From contig JAHQWH010000210.1 of the NCBI GenBank assembly GCA_029856105.1, positions 1-64,000 on the forward strand: a stretch of 64,000 nucleotides of DNA. The letters are read 5' to 3'. The DNA is from Promethearchaeia archaeon. Lineage in GTDB: Archaea; Asgardarchaeota; Lokiarchaeia; Sigyniarchaeales; SOKP01. Under the pieces are notes generated by a model. That model saw nothing but the letters and a program-made list of their open reading frames with translations, was not told where the DNA came from and did no database searches. Position 1 is the stretch's first letter. The number at the start of each line of letters is the position of its first letter. The position numbers and the translations under genes are program-made. Of the stretch, positions 2,813 to 38,466 are shown one piece after another.

Positions 2813-4339
2813 TTAATGGTCGTGATTATGCCCGTGTTGCTCCATTTTTACGTTAACTGGTTTTAGAGAACCGATAGCCCAGCCAGTGACTTCGTTTAAT
2901 GAAGGATGAATGACCATGGATCTGTAAATAGGCATAAAAGATCCTCCTTCTGGACACGCGCGCGATAATTTAGGGATATCTTCCTCCCTAGAAGATTCTG
3001 GTAAGACACATGTAAATCCAGAATTCATTAAATAGACGAAAGGTTGCACCAAGATCGCTGCGTGTGGTCCAACAACATGAGCGCCTAAAATTCTATAGGA
3101 CTTATCGACAACTAATTTGACGAATCCGTCGTCGTCATCGTTATTACTGAAGCCCATAGCGTAGCCCTTTGCTACCGTGGAATATTGTTTTATAGCAATG
3201 TAAATTTCGTAACCTTTATCAATAGCTTCCTTTTCCGTCATCCCTACGTGGCCAACTTGAGGATAAGTAAAAATTGCCCAAGGGACTGCCGAATAATCTA
3301 CAGATTTTCTCTGTTCTTTTGGAGCAAAAATATTATTAGTACATACCTCTGCTTCGTAATTCGCTTTGTGTCTAAACTGATAACGCCCATTAGCATCACC
3401 TATGCACCAAATATTCTTTTTATTCGTTTCTAGATATTGATTGGTTGTTACCCATCCGCGATTATCTATCTGAACGCCAGTTTCTTCGACATTTAGGATG
3501 TCTGCGTTTGAGCGTCTCCCCGTAGCTACGAAAATTTCCTCGCCCTTAACTTCTTTCGTCTCACCTGTATTAACATTTTCTACAACAACAACTTTTAAAT
3601 TACCCTCTTTTCTGACTTTAACTGCCTTGTGATTTGTTAAAACAGTCATGTGTTTTCCAAAGCTCTTTTCGAGAAGCACACTAATTTCTGGTTCTTCGGT
3701 TGCTACTAATCGCGGTAGCATTTCTATTATAGTAACATTAGTCCCCATAGCTGAGAAAATATGGGCGAATTCAGCAGCAATTACACCCCCTCCGATAATT
3801 ATGAGAGTTTTCCAAGGCTTTACGGGGAATTTTTCGCCAAAAAAGCTTCTATTGGTTATGTATCCTATTTCTTCTAAATCATCTATTGAAGGGATAAAAG
3901 ACCGACTACCGGAAGCGATAACGAATCGTTCTCCTTTAAATTTTCCAAGGCTCTCCTTTCCATCGATCGATTTTACTTCCATCTTGTAATCTCCAATAAA
4001 TTCTCCAACTCCACGATACAACTTAAGATTTGGAACATGCGCCAATCCCTGCTCCATTTCCTTACTCTCGTCGATTTGTGTCCACATTCTTTTAGCTATT
4101 AAATCCCAATCTATTCTTTCTACTTTAAATTCTACACCAACTTTGCTAGCATGTTGAGCTTCACGAATTAAATCAGCTGGATGGACCAAAACCTTCGATG
4201 GAATACAACCGCGCGTTAAACAAGTACCACCTAGTTTGGTATCTTCTATTAAAGCACATTTTAGCCCCATTTGCAGACCCGTGTTTAAGACGTTTAAACC
4301 GGCTCCAGACCCAATAACAACTAAATCATAATTCTCCAT
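2813..4339 (-). CDS. Pyridine nucleotide-disulfide oxidoreductase (dihydrolipoamide dehydrogenase / mycothione reductase-like)
   Basis: GSGAG FAD motif, GGTCLTRGCIPSK redox disulfide, GGGVIAAE, HPSLNE C-terminal His-Glu pair. Confidence 0.88.
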   Translation of the reverse strand: MENYDLVVIGSGAGLNVLNTGLQMGLKCALIEDTKLGGTCLTRGCIPSKVLVHPADLIREAQHASKVGVEFKVERIDWDLIAKRMWTQIDESKEMEQGLAHVPNLKLYRGVGEFIGDYKMEVKSIDGKESLGKFKGERFVIASGSRSFIPSIDDLEEIGYITNRSFFGEKFPVKPWKTLIIIGGGVIAAEFAHIFSAMGTNVTIIEMLPRLVATEEPEISVLLEKSFGKHMTVLTNHKAVKVRKEGNLKVVVVENVNTGETKEVKGEEIFVATGRRSNADILNVEETGVQIDNRGWVTTNQYLETNKKNIWCIGDANGRYQFRHKANYEAEVCTNNIFAPKEQRKSVDYSAVPWAIFTYPQVGHVGMTEKEAIDKGYEIYIAIKQYSTVAKGYAMGFSNNDDDDGFVKLVVDKSYRILGAHVVGPHAAILVQPFVYLMNSGFTCVLPESSREEDIPKLSRACPEGGSFMPIYRSMVIHPSLNEVTGWAIGSLKPVNVKMEQHGHNHDH

Positions 4340-4471: not shown

Positions 4472-5662
4472 TTACTTTCGCATTTTAATAAAACCGCCAG
4501 ATTTCATTAACGCACAAGGTTTAAGGTATTTTTTACCGCTTATTTTAACAAACTCTTCTAACATTTCAGACCATTTTTCGTAATTTCTTTTTCCAGGACC
4601 AAAAGGTCCGGGGATGCTCGTTCCAGTCAACATCACATCATCAATAATTTTGTATCCAGAAACAATACTATCTTCTAAAAGCTTGCATCCCTCATTTAAC
4701 ATTATGGCCATTGACATTTCAGGATTATAAATGCCTGCTTTTCTATCTAAATTTATTTTTGGTTTCCCACTCGTCCAATTGTAAAACCCTCTTCCTGTTT
4801 TTCTCCCCAAATTCCCCTCCCTTACGAGATTTGTTAGAACTTTACCAGGGCTAAAATCGGGAGAGAAAACTTTTTCATAACTTTTCAAAACATTGTAAGA
4901 AACATCTACGCCAAGATAGTCGGTCAACTCGCACGGCCCCATTGGAACTAATTTCCTTGCTTCAGCATCGGCATCAATTTGTTCCCATGGAATACCTTTC
5001 TCGAAAGCTTGATCAACCACCCAATTAAAATATATAATTTGTGGAGTGAGTAATCTATTTGCAATAAATCCGGGACTCTCTTTCTGAATTCTCACGGAAA
5101 GACGTTCTCCTTTGAGACAAGGTAGCTTTTTACCAATTAGTACTCCAATATCCAAAGCTTCTTCATTTGTTTTTTCACCTCTCATTACTTCAACGCAGCA
5201 TTGAAGGATAACCGGAAGGAAAAAATGCATTCCTATAACTTTTTCGGGTCTATTTGAATCTTCGGCGATCTCTGTTATTCTAAATGTAGATGTATTTGAG
5301 GCCAAAATACAGTGAGGAGGCGAGTTTTCCATAATAATTTTACAAACTTTTTTTTTAATTTCTATTTTTTCAACGACCGCTTCAAATACGAAATCAACCC
5401 CTTTAACCGCAGATGTTAAATCTATTGATTTCTTGCATCTTGCCATGATATTCGAAACGGATAATCCTTCTCCTAATTTGCCTTTTGCTTCAACTTTTTT
5501 TAAACCTTCTTCAATTTTAGCTAAGCCATTGTTAACAATATCGTCTTTAATATCAACTAAAGTTACATTATATCCAGCCATTAAAGCAACTTGGGCAATG
5601 CCATAACCCATAACTCCCGCTCCAACAACAGCAATGTTTTTTATATTACTTATATCAACCAT
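4472..5662 (-). CDS. 3-hydroxyacyl-CoA dehydrogenase
   Basis: GAGVMG, EAVVE, ASNTS, GMHFF, PGFIANR, GRKTGRGFY; duplicated C-terminal domain. Confidence 0.92.
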   Translation of the reverse strand: MVDISNIKNIAVVGAGVMGYGIAQVALMAGYNVTLVDIKDDIVNNGLAKIEEGLKKVEAKGKLGEGLSVSNIMARCKKSIDLTSAVKGVDFVFEAVVEKIEIKKKVCKIIMENSPPHCILASNTSTFRITEIAEDSNRPEKVIGMHFFLPVILQCCVEVMRGEKTNEEALDIGVLIGKKLPCLKGERLSVRIQKESPGFIANRLLTPQIIYFNWVVDQAFEKGIPWEQIDADAEARKLVPMGPCELTDYLGVDVSYNVLKSYEKVFSPDFSPGKVLTNLVREGNLGRKTGRGFYNWTSGKPKINLDRKAGIYNPEMSMAIMLNEGCKLLEDSIVSGYKIIDDVMLTGTSIPGPFGPGKRNYEKWSEMLEEFVKISGKKYLKPCALMKSGGFIKMRK

Positions 5663-5922: not shown

Positions 5923-6852
5923 CTATCCTTCGATAATATCCTTTAGTTTAGGGAATATTCGGGGGTAATGTACAGCCATGCAATGGATTCCATCAATAAG
6001 ATTTTTCCGCTTAAGCTCACCAATGAATGGTTTGAAAAGTTCATAATTGTATTGGTCATACAACTCCTTTTTCTGTTTTTTGTCGGTGACATCCTTCTTT
6101 ACGCTCTTCCACTTAGCCAGAATCTCCTTAGGGACGCTAACGCCTGGAACAAAAGTATCGAAACCTTTAGCAATTCCATACGACTTCATTGGAAAGATTC
6201 CGAGCAGGATAGGTACTTTATACTTCCTGATTCCTGTTAGAAATTCTATCGTGCGATCAAGATCGTATACTACTTGAGTTTGTATAAATTCACAACCCGC
6301 TTCTGCTTTTCTACCAATTTTCAAGACTTCTGGCCCCATTGGATCAGAATTAGGATTTGCTGCGCCCCCCACATGCAGTTTTGGAGGATCTTCAATCTCG
6401 TAGCCATTGATAGAACCTTTATCAACCATTTCTCGTACAAGTTTAATTAAAGTTGCTGAATCAAGATCGAAGACTGGTTTAGATTCGGGCATGTCACCCA
6501 TTGCCGTGTGATCTCCAGTGAGAGAGAGAATATTGTGAATACCTAGAGCCTGAGCGCCCATGATCATACCGGCAATACCTAATTTATTAACATCTCTCAC
6601 GGTCATCTGCCAAACGCATTCCAAGCCGGCAGCTTTTTGAATTAAATGTGTGGCTGCCATAGAATTTATTGTCACGATTCCTAAAGGACTATCTGTTACA
6701 TTTGCAGCAATAACATACGGAGCCATCTGCTTCGCTTCTTCGATCGTATGGGAAAGGTCACAAGTCTTTTCTGGTTCGAGTTCGCCGGTCAATATGAAAT
6801 CGCCCTTTGCGAGAGCTTCTCCTAACTTTGAATATGATTTTACTTCTGTCAT
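5923..6852 (-). CDS. metF: Methylenetetrahydrofolate reductase catalytic subunit MetF (copy 1)
   Basis: TGELEP, ANVTDSP, QMTVRDVN, LTGDH, FIQTQ. Start placed at ATG 6852, 10 nt after GGAGGT; the ORF track start is 6870. Confidence 0.88.
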   Translation of the reverse strand: MTEVKSYSKLGEALAKGDFILTGELEPEKTCDLSHTIEEAKQMAPYVIAANVTDSPLGIVTINSMAATHLIQKAAGLECVWQMTVRDVNKLGIAGMIMGAQALGIHNILSLTGDHTAMGDMPESKPVFDLDSATLIKLVREMVDKGSINGYEIEDPPKLHVGGAANPNSDPMGPEVLKIGRKAEAGCEFIQTQVVYDLDRTIEFLTGIRKYKVPILLGIFPMKSYGIAKGFDTFVPGVSVPKEILAKWKSVKKDVTDKKQKKELYDQYNYELFKPFIGELKRKNLIDGIHCMAVHYPRIFPKLKDIIEG

Positions 6853-6860
6853 TTTCACAT

Positions 6861-7532
6861 CTACCTCCATACTACCTCTCTTTGATGACCAATATCACTC
6901 CAATCTAAGGGGTCTCTTAATTTTGCGAACAAATCTAAACGTCCTAATTCTTTTAAGCGATTATAAATCAATACCCATCCACAATCCTTCTCGTAATTGC
7001 CCACTTCACATTTTCCGTCTACCATTCCGCCACAAGGCCCATTCATAAGCGATTTAGCGCAGGTTGTTATCGGACAAATTCCACCAGTTTCGTTTAATAA
7101 ACATTGTCCACACCCCTGGCAGCGCATATAGAAACGTCCGATGCGTTCTGTCTCGCCTATAAACTCCGTGTTATTAGCCGTGAAAACTGGTATTGTTGGG
7201 TGAGTTTTTGAAAGAACTGTAATAATTGACTGTACTCCTAAACCGCAAGCTAGCGTTAAAATAGCGTCAGATTTCTTAACATCATCATCAATAACTCGTA
7301 AATCTTTTTTCATCACACGGTTATCACAAACATCGTCGCTCACTATTGCATTAGTAACATTAAAGCCTCTTTCTTTTAGTTTTGCCGACCATTCTTCAGC
7401 CCCTTCAGATCCTCCAGTTTGACAGAGAGCCGCGCAAACCCCACAGCTCACGACTAGTATGTTTTTAACTTTAAAATTGTTAAGTGCTTCAAAAACTTCT
7501 TCCTCTGGTTTTTTCGTAGTTATTACAACCAT
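6861..7532 (-). CDS. metV: Methylenetetrahydrofolate reductase Fe-S/Zn subunit MetV (copy 1)
   Basis: CGVCAALCQTGG, ACGLGVQ, CQGCGQC..ETGGICPITTCAKSLMNGPCGG...CEV...CGW; directly upstream of metF. Confidence 0.88.
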   Translation of the reverse strand: MVVITTKKPEEEVFEALNNFKVKNILVVSCGVCAALCQTGGSEGAEEWSAKLKERGFNVTNAIVSDDVCDNRVMKKDLRVIDDDVKKSDAILTLACGLGVQSIITVLSKTHPTIPVFTANNTEFIGETERIGRFYMRCQGCGQCLLNETGGICPITTCAKSLMNGPCGGMVDGKCEVGNYEKDCGWVLIYNRLKELGRLDLFAKLRDPLDWSDIGHQREVVWR

Positions 7533-7929: not shown

Positions 7930-9426
7930 TTAACCAATCAAGTAGGGAAACATTTTGGCTAATGGAACCGCTAAACCGCCAAGTAAAGAGCCGATAGAGG
8001 TCAATTTTTTTAAATAGGTTTTCATATCTTTAGTAACTTTTATTGTCCTCGTTTTTCCTTCAATAATCGTGCCATCAGAAGACATTAAGAATATTTGAAT
8101 CGTTTGTTCTCCCGTTTGTCTTGGCTCTAAAGTTAACCAAGTCGAGTCTCCGTTTTCTATCATGGTTGATAACACCCCTACGATATCAGTACCTTCAGAA
8201 GAGATTAAAGGAATGGGTTTCTCTGGGATTAAGAAGACCCCTCTACCTTCAACCTTGATTGCTAAATTTAATTCGCTAGGTTCAAAGCCGGGAGCAACTA
8301 CTTTTATAGTGTATTTTTTATCTTCTGGGGCATTGTTGTAGAGAAAGATCATAATATTTAGTTCAGCATTCAAAAATACCACTTCTTGGGCTGAGGAATC
8401 CATATATATCGGATCCTTTGAAACGCGTTCAATATTATCAGCGAGTTCTAATTGAAGTCTATCAATGATGTTGAAGAAGCCCGGATTGTATTTTTTGATA
8501 TAAGCAAATAGTTTATAGACATCGGTAGTAGAAAAATACCACGAATTCTCAATTAGTAGTCCCTTTTCGACGTCAAAATCCAGCGAGTTAACGTCAATAA
8601 TTTCTGCCAGTTCTCGGGTAAATTGCTCTTTGGCTAATACATTTTGATATCTTAAATAATATAAAAACAAAAGCGATTCAATTGCAAAAGTTACTGGGAT
8701 TTCTCCTTCTTCTTGCTCTTTGATTTTTTGAATAAAGGAGGGCGTCAAAATTTTGTTAATCCCTGCTAAATATTCGTCCCATTTGAGGAATGTAACAGGA
8801 TCTAAATGATCGGAAAATACTTCTCCAAAAAAATTGTCCAAAAATATACTATGAGACGTGGGCTTGTAGAAGTCTTGTAGGCCGTTTACATCGTGGATGT
8901 TCAAATTCAGACTTCTAATTAACAGCGCTAATCCAAAACCTACTAACGACAATCCAACAGCGGCAAAACCGATATCAAAAAGCGTAGGCACTAATAACAT
9001 GACAACGAATAGAACCAGTGAGAGTATACATACGAATCCTATTATTTTAATTAAGTTTGTGACTCTCTTGACGCTGTTAAAGAGTAAAACAAAACCATCA
9101 AGGCTGTCAATTGGTCTCCCTCTTTTTCTCTCGAAATTCAATCTTGCCTTAAGAGACGCAGTAGTTTTAATTCCACCTAAGATAAGGATAGCCGAGTTTA
9201 CGCCATAAATTGATAGTATAATTATAAACACATATCTTAGGGTTAAATCAAGAAGAGCAATGTTAAGCAATGCTAACAAAGCCATTAGAACGAGTACGAT
9301 AGGTAAGACATATAGAAGTAATTTTCCCCATTTAGTCATATATCTTACTAATTTCCCTTGAGTTCTCTCTTTTTTAACTATTTTAACTAAATCTTTATCT
9401 AATCTTCTTTCCATTTTATAAATCAT
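7930..9426 (-). CDS. Hypothetical membrane protein (about 4 N-terminal TM helices, soluble domain, beta-rich C-terminal domain)
   Basis: 498-aa ORF with hydrophobic segments in the first ~175 aa; no family recognised. Confidence 0.75.
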   Translation of the reverse strand: MIYKMERRLDKDLVKIVKKERTQGKLVRYMTKWGKLLLYVLPIVLVLMALLALLNIALLDLTLRYVFIIILSIYGVNSAILILGGIKTTASLKARLNFERKRGRPIDSLDGFVLLFNSVKRVTNLIKIIGFVCILSLVLFVVMLLVPTLFDIGFAAVGLSLVGFGLALLIRSLNLNIHDVNGLQDFYKPTSHSIFLDNFFGEVFSDHLDPVTFLKWDEYLAGINKILTPSFIQKIKEQEEGEIPVTFAIESLLFLYYLRYQNVLAKEQFTRELAEIIDVNSLDFDVEKGLLIENSWYFSTTDVYKLFAYIKKYNPGFFNIIDRLQLELADNIERVSKDPIYMDSSAQEVVFLNAELNIMIFLYNNAPEDKKYTIKVVAPGFEPSELNLAIKVEGRGVFLIPEKPIPLISSEGTDIVGVLSTMIENGDSTWLTLEPRQTGEQTIQIFLMSSDGTIIEGKTRTIKVTKDMKTYLKKLTSIGSLLGGLAVPLAKMFPYLIG

Positions 9427-16680: not shown

Positions 16681-17142
16681 TTAAATAGGCAACCATTCGT
16701 CGCGATTGGTCGTCTTTATCGGCTTTAAAACCACACAAATTCTTTCTACGCTTTTTACATCGTTACGCCCTCGAAAATTTTCAACAAGCGCATCTAATTC
16801 GCTAATCTCTGGAACGTTAACCTTTATTAAAACGCCACATTGGCCTGCGAGAAAATAAACCTCCTCGCATTGAGGGATAATCTGCGTTTCTCTTATCAAT
16901 TCTTTAATTTCCGATTCGTTATTGGGAATTACCGTTAGGAAAGCAATTATACATCTCTCGTCATCTCTACATATTCGAATCGTAAATTTTTCGATAACTT
17001 TTTCGTCTTGTAATTTAATAACGCGTTTTCTTACCGTTGATTCGGATAAGTCAACCTCTTCGGCAATTTCTCGATAAGGACGCCGTGAATCTTCGATAAG
17101 CATTTCTAAAATACGTTTGTCTTTCTCATCTAGGTTTTTCAT
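16681..17142 (-). CDS. Lrp/AsnC family transcriptional regulator
   Basis: LDEKDKRIL...DSRRPYREIAEEVDLSESTVRKRV wHTH plus RAM domain. Confidence 0.92.
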   Translation of the reverse strand: MKNLDEKDKRILEMLIEDSRRPYREIAEEVDLSESTVRKRVIKLQDEKVIEKFTIRICRDDERCIIAFLTVIPNNESEIKELIRETQIIPQCEEVYFLAGQCGVLIKVNVPEISELDALVENFRGRNDVKSVERICVVLKPIKTTNRDEWLPI

Positions 17143-17237
17143 TTCTATTCTTTCCTATTATTTTTTTTTGTTTACAAAGTATAAAAAAATTTTTAATTAA
17201 AATTTTAAAAAAATTATATTATTAGTTTTACTTTGAA

Positions 17238-18191
17238 TTATTTTACGTATTCTGGGTATTCTCCGAGCAAAGGTGCGAAAAGTCTTTCGTACTCAACTGC
17301 CATACAATGAATACCTGCTGCTTTAGTAGTTTTCTTGATCTCTGCAATAAAAGGCTTGAAAAATTCGATGTTTATCTTGTCAATAGCTGCATATTTACCA
17401 GGCTTATTTCCTTTATTATCCTTTTCTGCTTTTTTAAGAGCTTTCAAAAGATCTTTTGGAACGCTAACTCCAGGAATATAGTTATCAAAGTACCAAGCTA
17501 TTCCGTGACTTTTTAATGGAAAGAGTCCAAGAAGCACTGGAACATTGTATTGTTCTAGATCTTTTAGAAAATCTTTTGCGTCGTCAATATCAAACGCTGT
17601 TTGCGTTTGGATAAAATCAACACCACGACCAACCTTACGACCAACCTTCAGGATTTCAGGTTCGCGAGGGTTACTGTTAGGGTTAGCTACGCAACCAAAA
17701 TTCATTTCTATTTTGCCTCCTATTAACTCGTTTCCCTCGTAGTCAGTTCCTTCGTCAATCATAATAGAAAGCATTTCACAGAACTGTGTGCTATCAATGT
17801 CGTAAACTGGGCGGCCTTTTTTGTGATCTCCAAGAGCCGTATGATCCCCTGTGAGAGTGAGAATGTTTTTTAGCCCCAAAATTGCTCCAGATATTACATC
17901 CCCAAAGAGTGCGACTCGATTTCGATCCCTAACTGTGACTTGCCATACTGCTTCAATTCCCGCTTCTTCTTGGACTTTAAAGCTTGGAACCAATGACGAC
18001 ATATAAGCATCGCCTTGTGGACCGTCCGTTACGTTTGCTGCTACGATTCTTTTAGTTTTTTTCATTTCCTTTGCGGAATGGATAATCTCACTAAGATCCA
18101 GAATTTTCTTTGGCTCTAGCTCACCAGTGAAAACAAAATGACCCGCTTCGATCGCTTTGCATAATTGACTATACGCCTTTCTTTTTGCCAT
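17238..18191 (-). CDS. metF: Methylenetetrahydrofolate reductase MetF (copy 2, in the hdr cluster)
   Basis: TGELEP, ANVTDGP, QVTVRDRNR, LTGDH, FIQTQ. Confidence 0.88.
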   Translation of the reverse strand: MAKRKAYSQLCKAIEAGHFVFTGELEPKKILDLSEIIHSAKEMKKTKRIVAANVTDGPQGDAYMSSLVPSFKVQEEAGIEAVWQVTVRDRNRVALFGDVISGAILGLKNILTLTGDHTALGDHKKGRPVYDIDSTQFCEMLSIMIDEGTDYEGNELIGGKIEMNFGCVANPNSNPREPEILKVGRKVGRGVDFIQTQTAFDIDDAKDFLKDLEQYNVPVLLGLFPLKSHGIAWYFDNYIPGVSVPKDLLKALKKAEKDNKGNKPGKYAAIDKINIEFFKPFIAEIKKTTKAAGIHCMAVEYERLFAPLLGEYPEYVK

Positions 18192-18896
18192 TTAATTTTC
18201 CACCTCATTTTTTTCTTCTTCGTTAGTATATTCCTTATTGATAACTAAGTATCCAGGACTGGTAGACGTGCGAAAGTCCCTTGGAGGTCTGTACTTTTTA
18301 AAGAGATCAAGTCTATTAAATTCTTTTAACCTTTCCCAAATGCGCACCCAAGCGCAAGGAATCGTGTAACCGCCTACTTCACACATTCCGTCGACCATTC
18401 CTCCACAGGGTCCGTTACTTAAATGTTTAGCACATCCAGCCCGTGGACATAATCCCCCCGTCTCTCCAATTATACAATCTCCGCACTCTTCACAGTATTC
18501 AATGAAATTATTCTCACCGCTGTTTTGTACGCCTCCAAACATGCTATTTTGGGCGGGGAAAGTTAACTTACTGGGAAGTACTTTATTCAGCATTACGACA
18601 CCAAGGCCACAAGCAAGAGAAACTATAGCTTCGTAGTCGTCGATGTAAGGTCGCACTGTTGTTGCTGCGATTCTATCGTCACATTGTCTTAATACCGTTA
18701 TTGCTTTCCATATTAACTCCTTACCTTCAGTTCGGGCTTTTAATTCTAAAAGTTGTCCAAGAACTTTTGCTTCATTTATGGATCGAGGAGGTTGACAGCA
18801 ACCATCGCATCCAGCTATTAATATCTTGTTATAGCTCTTAACCATTTCATAAATTTCGTTTATGTCTTTTAGTTGTGTAATTATCATATCATACAC
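18192..18896 (-). CDS. metV: MetV subunit (copy 2, in the hdr cluster)
   Basis: GCDGCC, RQCD, ACGLG, CEECGDC..ETGGLCP..CAKHLSNGPCGG..CEV..CAW; abuts metF2. Confidence 0.88.
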   Translation of the reverse strand: MYDMIITQLKDINEIYEMVKSYNKILIAGCDGCCQPPRSINEAKVLGQLLELKARTEGKELIWKAITVLRQCDDRIAATTVRPYIDDYEAIVSLACGLGVVMLNKVLPSKLTFPAQNSMFGGVQNSGENNFIEYCEECGDCIIGETGGLCPRAGCAKHLSNGPCGGMVDGMCEVGGYTIPCAWVRIWERLKEFNRLDLFKKYRPPRDFRTSTSPGYLVINKEYTNEEEKNEVEN

Positions 18897-18970
18897 GCTT
18901 TTTTATTATTGTTTTTTCAGATTTTATTAGATTTTTATTATTTTGTTTAAATCGTAAAAAAATTTTAGTA

Positions 18971-19855
18971 TTATATTTTTAATTTTTCCATTAATTTCGT
19001 TGGTTTTACGCTTCGTTGTTTCAAAGATAGCTTTGCTGTATCGACTCCAAAAGCGATTGCCATTAATTCTGCTAGATATAGAACTGGAATATCGAGTTCT
19101 TTCTCACTTTTTCTGGAGACTAATTTTTCTTTTCTGTCATATTGACTAGCACAAGCGGGACAAACAGCAACCATTCCATCTACTTCTTTGTCGAGATTTT
19201 TTAAGTCTGTCATTTTTTCTTCGACTAAGTTCATTCCTATCTCGTCTTGTAATCTAGCGCAGAACCCACAGCATTCGAGTTTAGCTGCAAATTCTAGGGG
19301 CGAAGCTCCTATAGCTTTTAGTATTTTATCCATGCTTTCAGGCCGTTCGGGATGATCAAATTGCATTATTTTTGAAGGTCTTATAAGATGACAACCATAA
19401 TGTGAAGCAATATTTAAACTATCTAACGGTTTAACAACTTTGCTTTTAATCTTCTCAAGCATCTCATCTTGGCTAAACAATTCTGCGAAATGAAAAACTT
19501 TTGAAGTCCCCTTATATTCGATTCCAAGCTTGCTTAGAACAGTATTAACTCTATCAAATGCTGCCTTATCTTCTTCTAATAAAACATGGACTGTTTTTAA
19601 GGTCTCAAAACATCCAGAACATACGGTCATGATGTCTAATCCAAGTTTTTCGGCAATAGCTAGATTTCTCGCTCCTAATGTTAACCAAGTATCAATATTG
19701 AGCGATTGAGTTGCTACAGGATCGGGACAACAACCCGCTCCCTCCATTTCCTTATACTCTATTCCTAAGATTTTAGAGATTTCTCGAAAGGCTTTTTCAA
19801 AGTGTGGCATTTTCAAAGGGATTGTACACCCTAAATACAACGCATATTCCATCAT
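18971..19855 (-). CDS. hdrB: Heterodisulfide reductase subunit B
   Basis: Two CCG domains: YLGC...GCCPDP...CSGC and HYGCH...ECCGF...CPAC. Confidence 0.92.
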   Translation of the reverse strand: MMEYALYLGCTIPLKMPHFEKAFREISKILGIEYKEMEGAGCCPDPVATQSLNIDTWLTLGARNLAIAEKLGLDIMTVCSGCFETLKTVHVLLEEDKAAFDRVNTVLSKLGIEYKGTSKVFHFAELFSQDEMLEKIKSKVVKPLDSLNIASHYGCHLIRPSKIMQFDHPERPESMDKILKAIGASPLEFAAKLECCGFCARLQDEIGMNLVEEKMTDLKNLDKEVDGMVAVCPACASQYDRKEKLVSRKSEKELDIPVLYLAELMAIAFGVDTAKLSLKQRSVKPTKLMEKLKI

Positions 19856-20388
19856 TTTTCATCCTCCTCTGATTTTTTTATTAAGTTTCCTAGTCCAGTC
19901 TCCCTAATTATGAATTGAATCTCATCTAAGTTAGGACCTACGATTTGTGGTAAATCCATCTTGTTTCTTCTTCTGTCTATAGTAGTTTTCATTCCGCCCG
20001 TATAAGGTACTACAAATCCATTATTATAAATCGTATTTATCGTAGCAGAATATTCTATTGGCACGTTTCCTTCTTTCACTGCCAAATTTCTTAAAAGCGC
20101 TAAGATAAACGAATAATCTACATTCTTTGGACATCTTTCTGTGCACCGATGACATAGTGAGCATGTCCATATAGCGTTGCTCGATAAAACTTCTTCTCTC
20201 AATCCTAGAAGGCATGAAGCAACAACTCTATGAGGTTGTAAATCGACGTATTCCGTTACTGTGCAACCAGAGCTACATACTCCGCATTGAATACACTTTA
20301 ATAAAGATTTTGTCCCCACTTTTTCGCTAATTTCGTACCTAAAATTGTGATCTAAATCTTTAGATTGTTTTACAACTTTATCAGACAT
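19852..20388 (-). CDS. hdrC: Heterodisulfide reductase subunit C
   Basis: CIQCGVCSSGC and WTCSLCHRCTERCP; 4-nt overlap with hdrB. Confidence 0.92.
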   Translation of the reverse strand: MSDKVVKQSKDLDHNFRYEISEKVGTKSLLKCIQCGVCSSGCTVTEYVDLQPHRVVASCLLGLREEVLSSNAIWTCSLCHRCTERCPKNVDYSFILALLRNLAVKEGNVPIEYSATINTIYNNGFVVPYTGGMKTTIDRRRNKMDLPQIVGPNLDEIQFIIRETGLGNLIKKSEEDEK

Positions 20389-20391
20389 CTT

Positions 20392-23300
20392 TTAAGCACC
20401 CTCCTTAGCTTTTTCTTTTTTTTCAATTTTATCACCTGTTTTACTAAGTGGTCCAAATGCTTTCACTTCATTAACAAAATCGGTAATAACTTGAGAGAAA
20501 CGTTTACCTTCGCTAGCTGATACCCATTCAAGTCGGTAACGTTCGGGATTAATTCCTACACTTTCTAAAGTTTCTTGAATCTCATTGTAACGCCTTAACA
20601 TGTCGTAATTGCCTTCTATATAGTGACAATCTCCAATGTGGCATCCACCAACAATCACTCCGTCAGCACCTTCCAAAAATGCTTGTAATATGAAACTTTT
20701 TGGAATTCTTCCAGTACACATAACTCTAATAGGCCTAATATTAGGAGGGTATTGAAATCTACTTACACCACAAGTATCTGCTCCCGCATAGCTACACCAA
20801 TTGCATAAGAAAGCTACAATCCTAGGTCTTTCGTCTATAAAGTCTCCTTTAACTGCTTCTGTAATCATTGGGTATATTTGATCATCGGCAAAATGTTGCA
20901 TAGTAATAGCCCCTGCAGGGCACGCTGCCGAACAATCTCCACACCCTTTACACAATAAAGGGTTAGACTCTGAAACCAAAACTTCGTTATCGAAATTGAC
21001 TCCAATAGCTCCGAAGTTACATACCTCCTCGCATTTTTGACATGCTATACATAATGCCGGGTTAACAACTGAAACCAGGGGTTCGTTTTCTACTTCTCCA
21101 GAAATCAACGGGATTAGCGCGTGAGCAGCAGCAGCTCTTCCTTGAGATATTGAATCAGCAATACCTTTTGGTCCGTGAGCAGTCCCAGCTAAATAAATTC
21201 CATCAGTCGCAAAATCAACGGGTCTTAATTTTATGTGAGCTTCTAAAAAGAACCCTTTTTGGTCTCTGGCGCACTTTATGAATTCTCCAAGTTTTTTAGT
21301 ATCATGAGGTATTAAAGGTGTTGACAAGACTACCTTGTCGGCTTCGATGTTAAGATTTATTTGAGTTAAAATATCGTTAACATTGACATTAATTTTTCCA
21401 TTGACAAGATCAACTTCGGGGTAATCGTTGAATCGAATGTAGTTGATATTTTCACGAGCTTTCCAGTAAAATTGTTCTTCATCAGTTCCTACGCGTATAT
21501 CTCTATAGAGAACGTAAATTTGCGAATTAGGGTAATTTTCTTTTACATATAAAGCGTGTCTTATAGATTCAGAACAACATATTAAGGAACAGTATGTAAC
21601 TCCATTACCGCCCTCAGGTTGTCGCGAAGCAACGCAGTGAATAAAGACGAAAGTCTCGCCATCCTTTAGTTCATCGTCTCTTAACTTTTGAGATAGTTCT
21701 AGTTGAGTCATTATTCTCTCGTCTTCCCCGTAATGGTACCAACCTTTTGGTTTATATTCGTAAGCGCCAGTAGCCGCGATTATAACTCCTACGTTTAAAT
21801 CTATGGTTTTCTCATCAGTTAAATTTTTAACTTTGATGTTAAAATCTCCTATTGAACCCTTAACCTCTACAACTTCGGAATTTAAGTAAGCCGTGAGATT
21901 TTTTAACCCGTTAAATTCTTTAAGTTTCTCTTCTAAAAACTGTTTTGAGTCAATTCTATCGAAATTAAGCTTATATATAAGGTTTAATTGCCCACCTAAT
22001 TTGTCGTCTTTCTCTATAAGGTGTACTTTGAAGCCTTTTTTGGCAATTTCCATAGCAGCAGACATTCCAGCGATACCCCCGCCGATTATTAACGCCTCTG
22101 GGACAACATCTCCCTTAATTCTAATTTCTGATTTTTGAAATCGTACACGCGCTACGCCCATTCTTATTAGATCTTTTGCTTTATCTGTCGCCTTTTCATA
22201 TTCCTTCATATGAACCCAAGAATCTAATTCTCGAATACTTACGAAATTAAATAAATATTCGTTTAGTCCTGCTTCTCGAATAGTTTTTTGAAATAATGGT
22301 TCGTGAGTTCTTGGTGTGCACGCAGCAACTATTACCCGGTTTAAGTCTAATTCCACAATCTTTTCCTTAATAATGTCTTGTGTGAGACTTGAACAACTAT
22401 ATTTATTGTCCATCGAGAAAACTACATTTGGAAGCGTTTTGGAATACTCAACAAGCGCCGGAACATCCATATACCCCCCTATATTAACCCCACACATACA
22501 AACAAATACTCCTATTCTTGGTTCGTCTCTGGGATTTACTACTTTTAAGGGAGGTAAAACAACCTCTAATTCTTCAGGACTTAAAGGAACGGCATGTAAA
22601 GCGCCTAACGCCGCTGCCCCTCCAGCTTTTGCTACCGAATTAGCTATGTCGTCAGGGGATTGGCAAGAACCGCTTACATAAATCCCATCCCGAGTAGATC
22701 GTAGATCTTCGGTTGAATTTTTTGTTTTAAAAAACCCTAATTCGTTTGTTTCAATCCCCAACATTTCGGCAAGCTTTTCGGTTCCCTTACGGGGGATCAC
22801 TGCGTTTGCCAATACAACCAAATCAAATTCACTAGTTTCAACGTCTCCCGTATCTAGGTTCGCGTGTTTTACAAAAAGGTTATGATTCTCGGGATTTTCT
22901 CGAATATCACCGGGAATGCCGCGAAAATAAATTAATTTGTATTCATCTTTTGCTCTTTCAATGAATTCTTCTTGGTTTTTTCCGATTACACGAGTATCGT
23001 TGAAAAAGATCGTAACATTTGTGTCTGGAGCGTGTTCTCGAGTGACTACCCCTTCTTTGGCCATATACATGCAACAGAATTTCGAACAATAAGCACATAG
23101 ATCCTCATTTCGAGAACCAACGCACCCAATAAAACCAATTTCGATAGCATGTTTTTTATCTGAAGGTCTAAGCAATTGTCCTTCAGTAGGACCAGACGCG
23201 CTTAATAAACGTTCATATTGCATTGCTGTAATAACATTAGGATATTCTCCGTAATGATATCTATCTATTGGTGTTGGATCTAATAAGTCTATTCCTGTAG

Positions 23301-23877
23301 CAACAATAATTGATGCCACATCATACTCAACTATTTCGTCTTTCATATCCCAATTAATAGCTTCAGCTTCACACTCTTTTTCGCATATTTGGCACGCATT
23401 TTTCGTTAGATATAGACATTTTTCAGCATCAATGACTGCCTTTCTTGGCACGGCTTGTGGAAAAGGTATATATATTGCTGTGCGGTTTCCCATTTCTTCT
23501 TCGAACTCACTCGGAATCTTTTTCATGGGACACTTTTCCATGCAAGCGCCACAACCTGTACATTTATCCCAATCAACATATGTTGATTTTTTTAATACTT
23601 TTACTTTAAAATTACCTGCTTCGCCAGATACTTCTTGAACTTCCGAATACATGAGAAGTTCTATGTTAGGATGTCTAGCTACTTCCACCATTTTTGGTGC
23701 TAAAATACAAATCGAACAATCTAAGGTTGGAAATGTTTTATCAAGTTGAGCCATACGTCCACCGACCGAGGATGTTTTTTCGACTAGAATTACCTTATAA
23801 CCTTGTTCACCCAAAGTAAGGCTGGCTTCAATTCCCGAAATTCCTGCTCCTATTACCATTATATTACTATTTGGCAT
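20392..23877 (-). CDS. hdrA: Heterodisulfide reductase subunit A with two FAD modules, fused to a C-terminal MvhD domain
   Basis: GAGISG...QLDKTFPTLDCSICIL, inserted ferredoxin, RIGVFVCMCG, ACTPRTHE, second GGGIAG module, C-terminal 2x[4Fe-4S], MvhD motifs FLCNWCSYAGAD, RVMCTGR, GCHIGDCHY. Confidence 0.93.
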   Translation of the reverse strand: MPNSNIMVIGAGISGIEASLTLGEQGYKVILVEKTSSVGGRMAQLDKTFPTLDCSICILAPKMVEVARHPNIELLMYSEVQEVSGEAGNFKVKVLKKSTYVDWDKCTGCGACMEKCPMKKIPSEFEEEMGNRTAIYIPFPQAVPRKAVIDAEKCLYLTKNACQICEKECEAEAINWDMKDEIVEYDVASIIVATGIDLLDPTPIDRYHYGEYPNVITAMQYERLLSASGPTEGQLLRPSDKKHAIEIGFIGCVGSRNEDLCAYCSKFCCMYMAKEGVVTREHAPDTNVTIFFNDTRVIGKNQEEFIERAKDEYKLIYFRGIPGDIRENPENHNLFVKHANLDTGDVETSEFDLVVLANAVIPRKGTEKLAEMLGIETNELGFFKTKNSTEDLRSTRDGIYVSGSCQSPDDIANSVAKAGGAAALGALHAVPLSPEELEVVLPPLKVVNPRDEPRIGVFVCMCGVNIGGYMDVPALVEYSKTLPNVVFSMDNKYSCSSLTQDIIKEKIVELDLNRVIVAACTPRTHEPLFQKTIREAGLNEYLFNFVSIRELDSWVHMKEYEKATDKAKDLIRMGVARVRFQKSEIRIKGDVVPEALIIGGGIAGMSAAMEIAKKGFKVHLIEKDDKLGGQLNLIYKLNFDRIDSKQFLEEKLKEFNGLKNLTAYLNSEVVEVKGSIGDFNIKVKNLTDEKTIDLNVGVIIAATGAYEYKPKGWYHYGEDERIMTQLELSQKLRDDELKDGETFVFIHCVASRQPEGGNGVTYCSLICCSESIRHALYVKENYPNSQIYVLYRDIRVGTDEEQFYWKARENINYIRFNDYPEVDLVNGKINVNVNDILTQINLNIEADKVVLSTPLIPHDTKKLGEFIKCARDQKGFFLEAHIKLRPVDFATDGIYLAGTAHGPKGIADSISQGRAAAAHALIPLISGEVENEPLVSVVNPALCIACQKCEEVCNFGAIGVNFDNEVLVSESNPLLCKGCGDCSAACPAGAITMQHFADDQIYPMITEAVKGDFIDERPRIVAFLCNWCSYAGADTCGVSRFQYPPNIRPIRVMCTGRIPKSFILQAFLEGADGVIVGGCHIGDCHYIEGNYDMLRRYNEIQETLESVGINPERYRLEWVSASEGKRFSQVITDFVNEVKAFGPLSKTGDKIEKKEKAKEGA

Positions 23878-24474
23878 AATTATTTCTTCAGTTTTTGTTT
23901 TTTTTTTAATATTTTTTATTAATTTTCGTTGCTTATCTTAAATTAATTGTCCTTTTTGAAAATAATTGTTTATATTATAAACTTATATTTTTATAATTTA
24001 CTTAATAGGTTAAAAGTATATATAAATATTTCTCTATTTGACGAAAAAGAAAAGTTTTATGTTGAAAATTTATAAAAAAAAAGTTTCTTTGATCAAAATT
24101 ATGATTTTATTATTCTTATTTTAATAAATTTTTGCTCAAAAAGTGTCAATTTGGCAATAGAGCATTTCTTCTCTAAGTAGATTGATGACATTTTCGTTAA
24201 TTTTACGATTTTTAAGATTTCAGATATCTAAATAGTTAAAAATAACGATAAATAATAACAAGTAGATAGTGCTTATCAAAATGTTATAAAAATTAATAGA
24301 AGATTGTAGAAATCGATTTAATTTTTTCTAAAAATATAAAGTCATATTATATAGATATTAATCAATATAATAAAATAAAACAAGTTAATAATCAAATAAT
24401 AAACAATTAATACAATAAGAATCCGACGAAAGCTTTATTGATACTTGTGGGATTCTAAAAACGTACTGAAAATC

Positions 24475-25155
24475 ATGAAAATAGTTGTATCTGGCCCTCT
24501 TCAGTGTGGAAAATCAAGTTTTATCAGAAATTTAGACGAAAAAGCTTTAAATGTCGAAGCAAAAGCTAGGGATAATAAGTTTTATACGGTTGGAATGGAC
24601 TTAGGTATTGTTAGATTAAATGGGTTTGATGTTTTTCTATTTGGAACTCCAGGTTTATTAAGATTCAATGTTATGAGAGATGTAATCATTCAAGGGGCTG
24701 ATGGGGTTATTTTTATTTTTGATGCGGCTCATCCTGAAAAAGATGAAGATGCATTAATCATATTAAATGCCCTTAGAAAAACAATAGGGGTTGATACGCC
24801 AATAGTTTATTTAGCAAACAAGCAAGATATTGCTGGTGCGAGACACGCTGAGGTGGTAAGATCACAGAATTACTTACGCGATGACGCTGTAATTTTTCCG
24901 ACAAGCACAAGGACAGGAGAAAATTTAAAAGAATCTTTAAAATATCTTGTAAATCTGATATACGACAATTATTCTTCCCTTCTCACAGTACTTCGTTCAT
25001 ATGAAACAAATATCGATGGATTGGCCGAAAAATTAGAAAAAAATCCTGTTGAGATGAGAGATTTGTTAAACAACCTTGAAATAAAGAGATTTATTGAGGT
25101 TGACAGGACCTCAAGAAGTTACAAAGTAAAACATGGCTTAAAACTCTTGTTATAA
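24475..25155 (+). CDS. Small GTPase (MglA/CvnD-like) with C-terminal winged-helix domain
   Basis: G1 GPLQCGKS, G2 TVGMDLG, G3 FGTPGL, G4 NKQD, G5 ST. Start placed at ATG 24475; the ORF track start is 24445. Confidence 0.88.
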   Translation: MKIVVSGPLQCGKSSFIRNLDEKALNVEAKARDNKFYTVGMDLGIVRLNGFDVFLFGTPGLLRFNVMRDVIIQGADGVIFIFDAAHPEKDEDALIILNALRKTIGVDTPIVYLANKQDIAGARHAEVVRSQNYLRDDAVIFPTSTRTGENLKESLKYLVNLIYDNYSSLLTVLRSYETNIDGLAEKLEKNPVEMRDLLNNLEIKRFIEVDRTSRSYKVKHGLKLLL

Positions 25156-32171: not shown

Positions 32172-33098
32172 CTATAATAAAGCTTTTAAAATCTCTGTTA
32201 AATCAGAAAGGAAATCTGAAACTTTTTCTATAAATTGTTCTTTTAATTTTTCTTTCATAACAACTGAGACAAATAAAGATTCTTCTTTGAGTTTTATTCG
32301 ATGTAGATATGATATTAATTCATTTCCAATCGTTGAAAAGGTAGAATCAGTCTCATAAGTTTCCTCTTGCATTCTTTTAAGTAAAAAGAGGTGTTCCTTA
32401 ATCGATTCGAGAAGTTCAATGTATATTTCTGGTTCTATAACATCGTTGTAGAACTCACTCATAATAATACCGTTTTTATCGAATACTATTAACGACTTAC
32501 TATCGAATTCCTTGATGTACTTTTCTAAAAGCTCAGAAAGTTCAAAGAATTTTTCATCAAATACTGATAACCCATAAGAAATAAGTTGAACTATTGAAAT
32601 AATATCGTAAATTGATGTTTGTTGGAATAAGATTTTAAATGAGTGATATTTTTTTAGAATATTTTCTCTTAATTCTTCAATCTGATCAACCATTTCCTCG
32701 TTCCCACGAAATTCGGGGTCGAATTTATGAAAGCTAATTAATAAAGGAACATCCATTTTATGCTTCTTGAAATTATGCAAAATCATATCTAAATAAGCGA
32801 GAGTAGTTCCAATTCTTTCCGTATCTTGAATGTCAATGATATATACTAGCAAATCAGTATCCGCAAAATAAAGCTCTTGCTTCTCTTGATATAACTTTCG
32901 ATATTGCTCTTGCCCACCCATATCCCAAAATACAATTCTGTTATTTAGAAACTCGGTTGCTTGATATTCAACTCTAATCGTTGGCGTAAGGGAAATTATA
33001 TCTTTATGAAAGTCATATTTCTTATTTAACGCTGTTAATATCGATGTTTTACCCGCGTTATCTAAACCAGCTATAATTATCTTGATAAATCGTTCCAT
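32172..33098 (-). CDS. Arf/Rag-like small GTPase with C-terminal roadblock/longin-like domain
   Basis: GLDNAGKTS, PT, WDMGGQ, HKFD, TSI; C-terminal SLIVFDKNGIIMSEF. Confidence 0.88.
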   Translation of the reverse strand: MERFIKIIIAGLDNAGKTSILTALNKKYDFHKDIISLTPTIRVEYQATEFLNNRIVFWDMGGQEQYRKLYQEKQELYFADTDLLVYIIDIQDTERIGTTLAYLDMILHNFKKHKMDVPLLISFHKFDPEFRGNEEMVDQIEELRENILKKYHSFKILFQQTSIYDIISIVQLISYGLSVFDEKFFELSELLEKYIKEFDSKSLIVFDKNGIIMSEFYNDVIEPEIYIELLESIKEHLFLLKRMQEETYETDSTFSTIGNELISYLHRIKLKEESLFVSVVMKEKLKEQFIEKVSDFLSDLTEILKALL

Positions 33099-37137: not shown

Positions 37138-38466
37138 TTGAAAAAGAAAGCCGAAGAAATTAGAAATATATTAATTAAACATGGTGAGTTCTTTCAAAAT
37201 GCAATTCCACTCATAGCTTCCGAAAATATCACTAGTCCTGCCGTAGATGAAGCTTGTAATTCTGATTTTTCTCATAGATACGCAGAGGGGTGGGTTGGAC
37301 AACGCGTTTACGCGGGATGTAAATATATCGATATGGTTGAAGACATCTGTATGGAACTTGCAAAGGAATATTTTAAATGCGTCCATGCCGATGTAAGGCC
37401 TATTTCGGGCGTTGTTGCTAACCTAGCAATGTATAACGCATTTACATCAGATAATAATGGTAAAATGTTAATAATGCCAATTCCAAAGGGGGGGCACATC
37501 TCTCACGCACCCAAATTCACAAAAAGTGGGATGGCAATTTATGGAACTGCGGGAACCGTACGAGGGTTGAATATTGAATACATGGCTTTTGATAACGACG
37601 AGATGAACATAGATCCTGATGCAACTGCAAAAATTATAAGGGAGGTTAAACCCGAAATGGTTTTATTTGGTGGTTCAGTGTTTCTTTTTCCCCATCCTGT
37701 CAAGGAACTTAGTGATGTAGCAAAAGAAGTGGGCGCTAATGTAGGTTATGACGCTGCTCATGTGGCAGGCTTGATTGGTTCAGGTTACTTTCAAGATCCT
37801 TTGAATGAAGGGGCGGATGCAATGACGTTAAGCACGCATAAGACCCTTCCAGGGCCTCAACATGGCGCTCTTCTATCAAATCGAGAAGATTTAATCGATA
37901 CATTAAGATTGTGTACCTTTCCTGCTTTATTATCTAACCATCACTTACATAACGTGGCTGGATTAGCTATAACATTAGCGGAAATGCTAGAATTTGGTAG
38001 AGAATATCATAAAAATGTTATTGATAACGCTAAAGCTTTAGGTCAAGCTTTATATGAAAGGGGTATAAATGTAATAATGGAACATAAAGGTTTCACGGAA
38101 TCTCATCAAATAGTTGTCGATATAACTAATTTTGAGAAAACTATAGGTTTAGGAGGAGATATTGAAAGATTAGTAGAAGAAGCAAATATCGTCATTAATA
38201 GAAACCTCTTACCGTGGGATATCGCGCAAGGACGTCACTATCAAAACCCAGGCGGTTTAAGATTAGGAACTTCAGAAGTTACCCGTCTTGGAATGGGCAA
38301 AAGTGAAATGGTAGATATAGCAGAATTTTTCAAAGATTTGTTGATTGACAAAAAGGATCCTAAGAAAGTCAAACAAGATGTATTGGAGTTTAGAAAAGAT
38401 TTTCAAGAAATTAAGTATTGTTTTCAATCTCCAAATAAAGCGCATGAATACATGAAATTTTACTAA
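37138..38466 (+). CDS. glyA: Serine hydroxymethyltransferase
   Basis: LIASEN, RYAEG, GGHISH, DAAH, STHKTLPGPQ (PLP lysine), GLRLGT. Confidence 0.96.
   Translation: MKKKAEEIRNILIKHGEFFQNAIPLIASENITSPAVDEACNSDFSHRYAEGWVGQRVYAGCKYIDMVEDICMELAKEYFKCVHADVRPISGVVANLAMYNAFTSDNNGKMLIMPIPKGGHISHAPKFTKSGMAIYGTAGTVRGLNIEYMAFDNDEMNIDPDATAKIIREVKPEMVLFGGSVFLFPHPVKELSDVAKEVGANVGYDAAHVAGLIGSGYFQDPLNEGADAMTLSTHKTLPGPQHGALLSNREDLIDTLRLCTFPALLSNHHLHNVAGLAITLAEMLEFGREYHKNVIDNAKALGQALYERGINVIMEHKGFTESHQIVVDITNFEKTIGLGGDIERLVEEANIVINRNLLPWDIAQGRHYQNPGGLRLGTSEVTRLGMGKSEMVDIAEFFKDLLIDKKDPKKVKQDVLEFRKDFQEIKYCFQSPNKAHEYMKFY

Follow-up and report, generated by a model that had tools for sequence, protein, structure and literature searches.

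Among the closest described systems is the Hdr-type ('type IV') methylenetetrahydrofolate reductase (MTHFR), in which MetFV is joined to the heterodisulfide reductase (Hdr) subunits HdrCBA and to MvhD; it was proposed in Moorella thermoacetica by Mock et al. (2014, as relayed in PMC9430772 and PMC6085437). In Sporomusa ovata, MetVF interacts physically with HdrA, HdrB, and MvhD, although the complex could not be purified (PMC9430772). A 2018 survey listed one archaeal case of Hdr-type MTHFR, in Methanomassiliicoccus. The anaerobic methanotrophic archaea of group 1 (ANME-1) and Syntrophoarchaeum, for their part, appear to have swapped Mer, the methylene-tetrahydromethanopterin (methylene-H4MPT) reductase, for an archaeal type of MetF (PMC9012536). 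Syntrophoarchaeum has MetFV-HdrA-MvhD clusters, Asgard MetF was placed in the ANME-1-type clade, and it was suggested that electrons of the one-carbon (C1) step feed directly into bifurcation or confurcation in ANME-1 and Syntrophoarchaeum (Chadwick et al., 2022; PMC9012536). The same authors describe a 'complementary loss' architecture of HdrA, found in Moorella HdrA and in ANME HdrA3/4. Here, we describe a cluster of this kind, hdrA::mvhD-hdrC-hdrB-metV-metF-lrp, in a Lokiarchaeial genome. The stretch that we analysed (the window) comprises positions 1 to 64,000 of contig JAHQWH010000210.1.

The Lokiarchaeial operon encodes a putative archaeal variant of the enzyme type known from acetogenic bacteria. 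We lean, with somewhat better than even confidence, towards the view that it encodes a soluble Hdr-type MetVF methylene/methyl-tetrahydropterin oxidoreductase acting at the Mer step of an H4MPT-based Wood-Ljungdahl pathway. The source is a metagenome-assembled genome (MAG; GCA_029856105.1) of the Promethearchaeota, 3.66 Mb in size, 92% complete, and with 6% contamination. The MetF of the operon (MetF1) is 96% identical to MetF of 'Promethearchaeota archaeon Loki_b31', and its best 120 homologues are every one from Loki genomes, each at least 87% identical. A preliminary description of the window, made from its letters alone, had guessed an archaeal, probably Asgard, host and had suggested that Hdr is wired to MetVF in it. 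The genome bears out the first of these, and the second is supported by the conserved Hdr-MvhD-MetVF unit, of the Moorella and Sporomusa kind, that is described below. Its further claim, that the methyl branch is folate-dependent and bacterial in style, is not supported, as discussed after the pathway context.

Window proteins were assigned to families by Pfam and NCBIfam profile searches, and the window annotation covers most open reading frames (ORFs) of at least 100 aa. The six co-oriented genes proposed earlier are present as intact ORFs on the minus strand at exactly the positions given here, together with the intervals that matter to the argument:

23878-24444, minus strand: presumed operon promoter region, 567 nt, AT-rich, recognised from the upstream sequence; divergent from a small-GTPase gene at 24445-25155.
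20392-23877, minus strand: hdrA(x2)::mvhD, 1161 aa, from profile searches and alignment to solved HdrA (8RVU/5ODC) and MvhD.
19852-20388, minus strand: hdrC, 178 aa, matching Fer4_8 and TIGR03290.
18971-19855, minus strand: hdrB, 294 aa, with two CCG domains and a match to TIGR03288 at 275 bits.
18897-18970, minus strand: hdrB-metV spacer, where the sequence has a T7 run (18956-18962) and then a TTTAAA-like element.
18192-18896, minus strand: metV1, 234 aa, matching DUF5981, with PF12225 at 7.8e-29.
17238-18191, minus strand: metF1, 317 aa, of the MTHFR TIM-barrel family, with PF02219 at 7.6e-23.
16681-17142, minus strand: Lrp/AsnC-family regulator, 153 aa, from profile searches; a conserved neighbour behind metF.

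The tight spacing that had been noted is also real: hdrA and hdrC are 3 nt apart, hdrC and hdrB overlap by 4 nt, hdrB and metV are separated by 74 nt, and metV abuts metF. The gap between metF and lrp is 95 nt and AT-rich, and lrp probably has its own promoter.

The hdrA product is an asymmetric tandem whose halves are 29% identical (E 2e-26). Profile matches place FAD/Rossmann starts at aa 6 and 595, Fer4 domains, and an FlpD/MvhD domain at aa 1020-1142. Unit 1 (aa 6-382) is a thioredoxin reductase (TrxR)-like FAD domain. Its 2x[4Fe-4S] ferredoxin insert is retained (Cys106-116 and Cys154-169), Cys57 corresponds to Cys197, and E222/K274 provide the bifurcation signature, for which we took the E356/K409-type pair of PMC9430772 as the standard. 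Unit 2 (aa 450-1008) comprises an N-terminal Fe-S domain, a TrxR-like domain, and, at the C-terminus, a 2x[4Fe-4S] ferredoxin domain; it has neither the ferredoxin insert nor a Cys197 equivalent and carries S729/R773 at the signature positions. The MvhD part, with five conserved Cys, lies behind unit 2 (aa 1017-1148 by structure-chain alignment). The protein thus has the enlarged HdrA of type IV MTHFR, with an extra TrxR-like flavin unit and the E/K signature in one unit. No GltD-like NAD(P)H insert was detected in it (no Fer4_20 or GltD match among the Pfam and NCBIfam profiles), and modules for NAD(P)H, F420, or hydrogenase are absent from it and from the rest of the operon. The protein nominally exceeds the cut-off of the NCBIfam HdrA2 model (NF040770; 1156 versus 1100 bits), but the model has 777 positions, the tandem protein has 1161 aa, and the score adds up from three separate stretches of it. 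It is therefore no proof of equivalence, and we set the HdrA2 name aside as a probable artefact of the tandem architecture.

The methanogen-type features of HdrB and HdrC are all in place. HdrC has two CxxCxxCxxxC motifs (Cys32-42 and Cys76-86), one for each of two [4Fe-4S] clusters. Both non-cubane signatures of HdrB are intact, C10-X31-C42C43-X35-C79xxC82 and C155-X39-C195C196-X35-C232xxC235, and agree with the pattern of two CX31-39CCX35-36CXXC motifs. Since HdrB and HdrC keep all cluster motifs, the disulfide-reducing end looks intact.

The two C1 proteins are encoded side by side, as in type IV MTHFR. Across 50 orthologues of MetV1, 12 Cys do not vary and a thirteenth hardly does; the true start of MetV1 may be an in-frame ATG three codons downstream. 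The LTGD and IQTQ motifs of MetF1 correspond in alignment to the conserved RGD and TQ of human MTHFR (6FCX), and neither changes in any of 50 orthologues. As a single sequence MetF1 had no match in the Protein Data Bank (PDB) at 1e-5, whilst a MetF profile found the human, Thermus, and E. coli MTHFR structures weakly. MetV had no PDB match even with a 50-row profile, and the PDB sequence search returned no solved structure of MetV or of any Hdr-type MTHFR.

Among 50%-identity cluster representatives, the closest to MetF1 are of the Loki MetF2 type (a second copy, discussed below) and a Bathyarchaeota/Hecatellales cluster, at 46-48% identity; the latter, at 46%, is the nearest from outside Loki, and Clostridioides-type MetF is ~37% identical. 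We built a quick maximum-likelihood tree of 101 MetF sequences, which is unrooted and consists of representatives mostly without names; Moorella, Sporomusa, ANME-1, and Syntrophoarchaeum are not represented in it by name. In this tree, all Asgard and Bathyarchaeial copies fall in one 24-row archaeal clade (SH-aLRT 90), and a 72-row clade with the Clostridioides representative (support 97) stands apart from it. Within the archaeal clade, a 15-row clade (support 98) holds the MetF1 copies of the window's family (support 100), the family's MetF2 copies with a sister-family copy, and an Hdr-linked copy from another Asgard family, G025. With the Clostridioides representative as reference, MetF1 did not group with the MetF of bacterial acetogens in this tree; it belongs, next to MetV, to the archaeal MetF clade of Bathyarchaeota and Asgard archaea that characterises the ANME-1/Syntrophoarchaeum type. 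MetF1 orthologues of at least 66% identity are confined to the window's own family, save for a single copy found on a 2.6-kb contig whose genome is assigned to another family, whereas the MetF2 type is widespread. Given this placement and this restricted distribution, MetF1 is a lineage-specific archaeal MetF paralogue and no recent bacterial import.

The pathway in which such an enzyme would work is visible in the rest of the genome, which carries Mtd, Mch, two Ftr, CdhC of CODH/ACS (CO dehydrogenase/acetyl-CoA synthase), and beta-RFAP synthase of methanopterin biosynthesis. A true Mer was not found in this genome, where the best match reached 38.8 bits against a cut-off of 348.7 bits. A true Mer was detected in 70 out of 301 Asgard genomes; none of the 68 sampled from the window's family and none of the seven from its sister family yielded one. 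Since Mch is present in 67 of 70 own-family genomes, the absence of Mer is a family trait and not a gap in one MAG. An H4MPT methyl branch that is present whilst Mer is absent is also what marks the ANME-1/Syntrophoarchaeum type. In some papers on Bathyarchaeia, too, Mer is missing, and 'an alternative and unknown complex' is said to be required.

These data bear directly on the alternative put forward in the preliminary description: a folate-dependent, Moorella-type bifurcating methylene-tetrahydrofolate (methylene-H4F) reductase, with methylene-H4F as the high-potential and ferredoxin as the low-potential acceptor, in a bacterial-style methyl branch. The Pfam and NCBIfam names of the C1 proteins (MTHFR and MetV) point that way, and the gene set is identical to that of Moorella and Sporomusa. 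FolD is present in the genome, on a contig other than that of the operon, and a serine hydroxymethyltransferase (GlyA/SHMT) gene lies in the window at 37138-38466 (plus strand), 13 kb from the operon. The methylene-H4F couple, at -200 mV (PMC9430772), would moreover drive bifurcation more strongly than the H4MPT couple. Against this stand the H4MPT branch, complete but for Mer, the position of MetF1 outside the clade that holds Clostridioides-type MetF, and the lack, in HdrA and the operon alike, of a module that would bring in electrons from NAD(P)H, F420, or a hydrogenase. Formyl-tetrahydrofolate synthetase (Fhs), for its part, was not found in the genome, and in other archaea MetVF of this type adjoins ftr or mer. 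We conclude that the folate-based, bacterial-style framing is probably wrong, and think it unlikely that the operon encodes such an enzyme.

The preferred reading, an Hdr-linked oxidoreductase at the Mer step, presupposes that the hdr and metVF genes belong together, and here comparative evidence is available. We compared the best 80 loci, one per GTDB species and Promethearchaeota throughout, whose MetF1 orthologues are 70-98% identical; the reach of this sample stops short of bacterial and euryarchaeal loci. An Hdr/MvhD gene directly precedes metV1-metF1 in all 80. The full hdrA::mvhD-hdrC-hdrB-metV-metF order is found in 60, and contig ends cut it short in seven more. Nine loci have a second type of hdrA2x::mvhD (48% identical) directly before metV, with a split hdrA pair upstream, and hdrB precedes that pair in the seven that extend so far. 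One locus has hdrA2x::mvhD alone, and the remaining three have, directly before metV, a short match to a ferredoxin domain fused to MvhD (Fd::MvhD) alone; in L096 and L097 this is the tail of a GltD-like protein, whereas L094 is cut by a contig end. A separate set of 20 loci gave the same picture of synteny. The preliminary description had named a lack of synteny among Asgard relatives as grounds for abandoning its proposal; with the adjacency kept in 80 of 80 loci, that refutation fails.

The variant loci are informative. In L096 (5545-8277) and L097, a 910-aa NAD(P)-binding flavoprotein of the GltD/NfnB kind, whose C-terminus carries the same ferredoxin domain and MvhD, lies directly before metV1-metF1 and replaces hdrA-hdrC-hdrB in the same slot, with phosphoenolpyruvate carboxykinase upstream and a metallo-beta-lactamase downstream, as in the window; neither locus has an Lrp gene after metV1-metF1. 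A 6.2-kb Bathyarchaeota contig (L107) holds ftr, a divergent metF-metV pair, and a gene for a 394-aa polyferredoxin::MvhD followed by a second metV-metF, so that it resembles the Loki window in having two MetVF pairs, one of them MvhD-linked. G025 (L112:8441-17838) has metV-metF-hdrA2x::mvhD (1206 aa)-hdrC-hdrB and, 665 nt past this cluster, two mer genes that are true by the Mer cut-off (398 and 430 bits); a cofilin/ADF gene is found 1.6 kb upstream of the cluster. The module swap and the Bathyarchaeota contig together imply that the constant neighbour of MetVF is Fd::MvhD, whilst the flavoprotein is exchangeable. This constancy is the best available argument that MvhD would link MetVF to the electron-input module.

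It also speaks against the idea that hdrACB and metVF are separate transcription units acting on different substrates, with no shared function. A chance adjacency is conceivable in a genome with 11 MvhD-domain genes and several Hdr sets, and the 74-nt spacer between hdrB and metV contains a conserved T-run/TATA-like element. Its median length over 67 orthologous loci is 77 nt, and in 67 of 68 spacers (window included) a run of T5-T11 lies no more than 45 nt from the hdrB stop, with at least six Ts in 60 of the 68, whilst the rest of the spacer diverges. The element could represent an incomplete archaeal terminator, or else an internal promoter's TATA box. The adjacency, however, holds in 80 of 80 loci, survives both the change of gene order in G025 and the replacement of the flavoprotein module, and crosses phyla, being seen in Bathyarchaeota; pull-down interactions have been reported for the bacterial homologues. 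We regard unrelated functions as very improbable.

An anabolic role deserves separate consideration. Here MetVF1 would make methyl-pterin for the synthesis of methionine and methyl groups, with Hdr doing no more than supplying low-potential electrons and Lrp adjusting expression to amino-acid status, and the second pair, MetVF2, would be the pathway enzyme. An Lrp/AsnC regulator gene lies within 400 nt downstream of metF in 74 of 77 loci; the top NCBIfam match of the window's Lrp is LysM-like, although below the cut-off. MetFV is anabolic in Methanosarcina (PMC9012536), and MetF2 is the more widespread copy. Yet a 1161-aa bifurcation-type HdrA with HdrBC would be unusually heavy machinery for a biosynthetic side reaction; the cluster, unlike that of Methanosarcina, is unlinked to folD, folP, and purN; and the G025 cluster adjoins mer. 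We therefore consider this role improbable.

How might an Hdr-type oxidoreductase at the Mer step operate? From the domain layout, we propose that MetF1 (a flavin TIM barrel) and MetV1 (an Fe-S protein) would carry out the C1 chemistry and would be wired, via the ferredoxin-domain::MvhD tail, to the fused asymmetric HdrA pseudo-dimer. The single bifurcating FAD of that pseudo-dimer would reside in unit 1, alongside the ferredoxin-docking insert, and this inserted domain would serve ferredoxin as the low-potential partner. HdrC and HdrB would form a third branch, serving a high-potential disulfide/dithiol partner. By analogy with methanogens, MetVF would hold the place of the Mvh hydrogenase, the MvhD-docked module exchanging a mid-potential electron pair with the bifurcating flavin, and the methyl-/methylene-H4MPT couple would be the mid-potential two-electron partner. 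The system would be reversible, confurcating in the acetogenic direction and bifurcating in the oxidative direction.

The energetics are compatible with this scheme. The methylene/methyl-H4MPT couple lies at about -320 mV, ferredoxin at about -500 mV, and heterodisulfide at about -140 mV. The mean of the latter two, about -320 mV, therefore matches the C1 couple. For folate, with its couple at -200 mV, the third partner would have to be more positive. F420H2 plays the same mid-potential role in HdrA2B2C2 of Methanosarcina acetivorans (PMC5296606). On the strength of the potentials and the pathway context, a reversible methyl-H4MPT : ferredoxin + disulfide oxidoreductase is favoured. A stronger version is possible, but we hold it only tentatively: that methyl-H4MPT, rather than H2, F420H2, or NADH, reduces ferredoxin and an Asgard disulfide through the bifurcating HdrA, reversibly, and that Fd::MvhD is a general adaptor. 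Through such an adaptor, archaea could combine one MetVF core with different input modules, be it a tandem HdrA, a polyferredoxin, or a GltD-like NAD(P)H flavoprotein, and Lokiarchaeia would then gain an F420-independent, energy-coupled substitute for Mer.

The window contains a second MetVF pair, metV2 (6861-7532) and metF2 (5923-6870), on the minus strand ~10 kb from the operon; MetF2 and MetF1 share 46% identity. Behind the pair come a gene for a 3-hydroxyacyl-CoA dehydrogenase (4472-5662, minus strand) and then one for a dihydrolipoyl-dehydrogenase-like (Lpd-like) flavoprotein (2813-4339, minus strand; 526 bits versus a 592-bit cut-off). The order metV2-metF2-(3-hydroxyacyl-CoA dehydrogenase)-Lpd-like recurs in relatives, for example in L014, L037, L041, L062, L072, L097, and L099, and recalls the clostridial metV-metF-lpdA arrangement. 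For the same step, MetVF2 might offer an alternative that is linked to NAD(P)H. Upstream of metV2, a 498-aa ORF (7930-9426, minus strand) has no Pfam match.

Several observations weigh against our assignment of the operon to the Mer step. First, MetVF2 could equally fill the Mer gap; copies of its type adjoin Mer in other Asgard genomes (at ~0.3 to 4 kb) and are more widespread. Second, G025 has Mer as well as the Hdr-MetVF cluster, which thus does not in every case simply stand in for Mer. Third, published Lokiarchaeon reconstructions list 'mer', and 31 of the 68 genomes of the family contain Mer-like genes below threshold (E 1e-41 to 1e-50), although none is present in the window's genome. 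Such genes may explain the 'mer' of the reconstructions; as a Mer for this genome we rejected them, its own best match being the 38.8 bits given above. Fourth, the genome is 92% complete and 6% contaminated. Fifth, the C1 carrier is not readable from the sequence, with which folate is also compatible, and the presence of FolD may mean that a folate pool exists. Sixth, since no Mcr was found, a CoM/CoB-type heterodisulfide is not expected as the HdrB substrate; Asgard papers call the Hdr substrate unidentified (PMC11291895). Finally, the conserved element in the hdrB-metV spacer would allow separate transcription, so that hdr and metVF may not be co-transcribed.

No mcr, hydrogenase, or formate dehydrogenase genes were found among the annotated window ORFs, which agrees with what had been noted beforehand, and McrA was not found in the whole 92%-complete genome. 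The NiFe hydrogenase matches of the genome lie on contigs other than that of the window. One such contig (C225:5138-16796) holds ftr, mtd, an 852-aa MvhD-domain ORF, and a NiFe hydrogenase large subunit within ~12 kb, and it carries mch too; this is a second Hdr/MvhD module, hydrogenase-linked and beside H4MPT genes. Four of the 11 genomic MvhD/FlpD-domain matches (contigs C132, C194, C11, and C175) have two in-frame TGA codons each and are probably selenocysteine-containing VhuD-like proteins. Elsewhere in the window, the gene divergent from the hdr operon (24445-25155, plus strand) encodes a Ras/Arf-like small GTPase, and a Gtr1/RagA-like GTPase gene lies at 32172-33098 (minus strand); both are typical eukaryote-like signature proteins of Asgard archaea. 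Two genes for Eco57I/MmeI-type restriction-modification methylases are present in the 64-kb window, at 745-2724 and 56692-58725 (both minus strand).

Few known organisms are as closely related to eukaryotes as Lokiarchaeia, whose energy metabolism, that of hydrogen-dependent acetogens or of syntrophic fermenters, is debated. Reconstructions list 'mer' or leave the step open; here, a family keeps an H4MPT branch that lacks Mer together with a conserved Hdr-MetVF operon. If the operon encodes the missing reductase, this Wood-Ljungdahl step would be coupled to ferredoxin and to a thiol/disulfide pool, altering the assumed ATP and redox balance, and the operon offers a concrete route to finding the Asgard Hdr substrate. 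We found no paper describing a Lokiarchaeial Hdr-MetVF operon in the literature that we searched. To our knowledge, an intact Hdr-type MTHFR has yet to be purified, and none has a solved structure, whatever the organism; the archaeal version, with its five genes and a built-in MvhD, could lend itself to purification and structural work.

Set beside the known systems, the operon has much in common with type IV MTHFR of Moorella and S. ovata: all six protein modules are in one cluster, with hdrA, hdrB, hdrC, and mvhD present. As in S. ovata HdrA, two TrxR-like units stand in tandem, the E/K signature is in the N-terminal unit only, and the ferredoxin insert is missing from the canonical unit; the architecture is the 'complementary loss' one of Moorella HdrA and ANME HdrA3/4. 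Unlike in Moorella and S. ovata, MvhD is fused to the C-terminus of HdrA, the gene order is different, MetF and MetV are of the archaeal clade, and the host has a Mer-less H4MPT branch and no Fhs. The Loki HdrA also lacks the GltD-like NAD(P)H insert of Moorella, and a module of that kind appears instead in the variant loci L096 and L097. With ANME-1 and Syntrophoarchaeum, the operon shares the MetF clade, the absence of Mer, and, in the case of Syntrophoarchaeum, the clustering with HdrA and MvhD; the proposal that the C1 step passes its electrons straight to a bifurcation or confurcation is common to both as well. It differs from them in including HdrC and HdrB, in its host, which is no alkane or methane oxidiser (McrA was not found), and in being an arrangement found family-wide, with a conserved Lrp gene and a second MetVF paralogue ~10 kb away.

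In comparison with the MvhAGD-HdrABC complex of hydrogenotrophic methanogens (solved as 5ODC, 8RVU, and 7BKB), the HdrA core (E 1e-200) and MvhD (E 1e-51) are unmistakable, HdrC and HdrB are clear homologues, and HdrB retains every cluster ligand. The hydrogenase is absent, however, a fused asymmetric polypeptide takes the place of the HdrA homodimer, MetVF is attached, and CoM-S-S-CoB is unlikely to be the substrate. HdrA2B2C2 of M. acetivorans (PMC5296606) likewise has an HdrA::MvhD fusion, but it has no MetVF partner; it is soluble and ferredoxin-linked and uses a mid-potential two-electron donor, F420H2, features that are shared with our proposal for the Loki system. Mer itself, an enzyme of unrelated luciferase-like fold that is F420-dependent and not energy-coupled, would be the functional equivalent of the Loki complex at the same step of the pathway.

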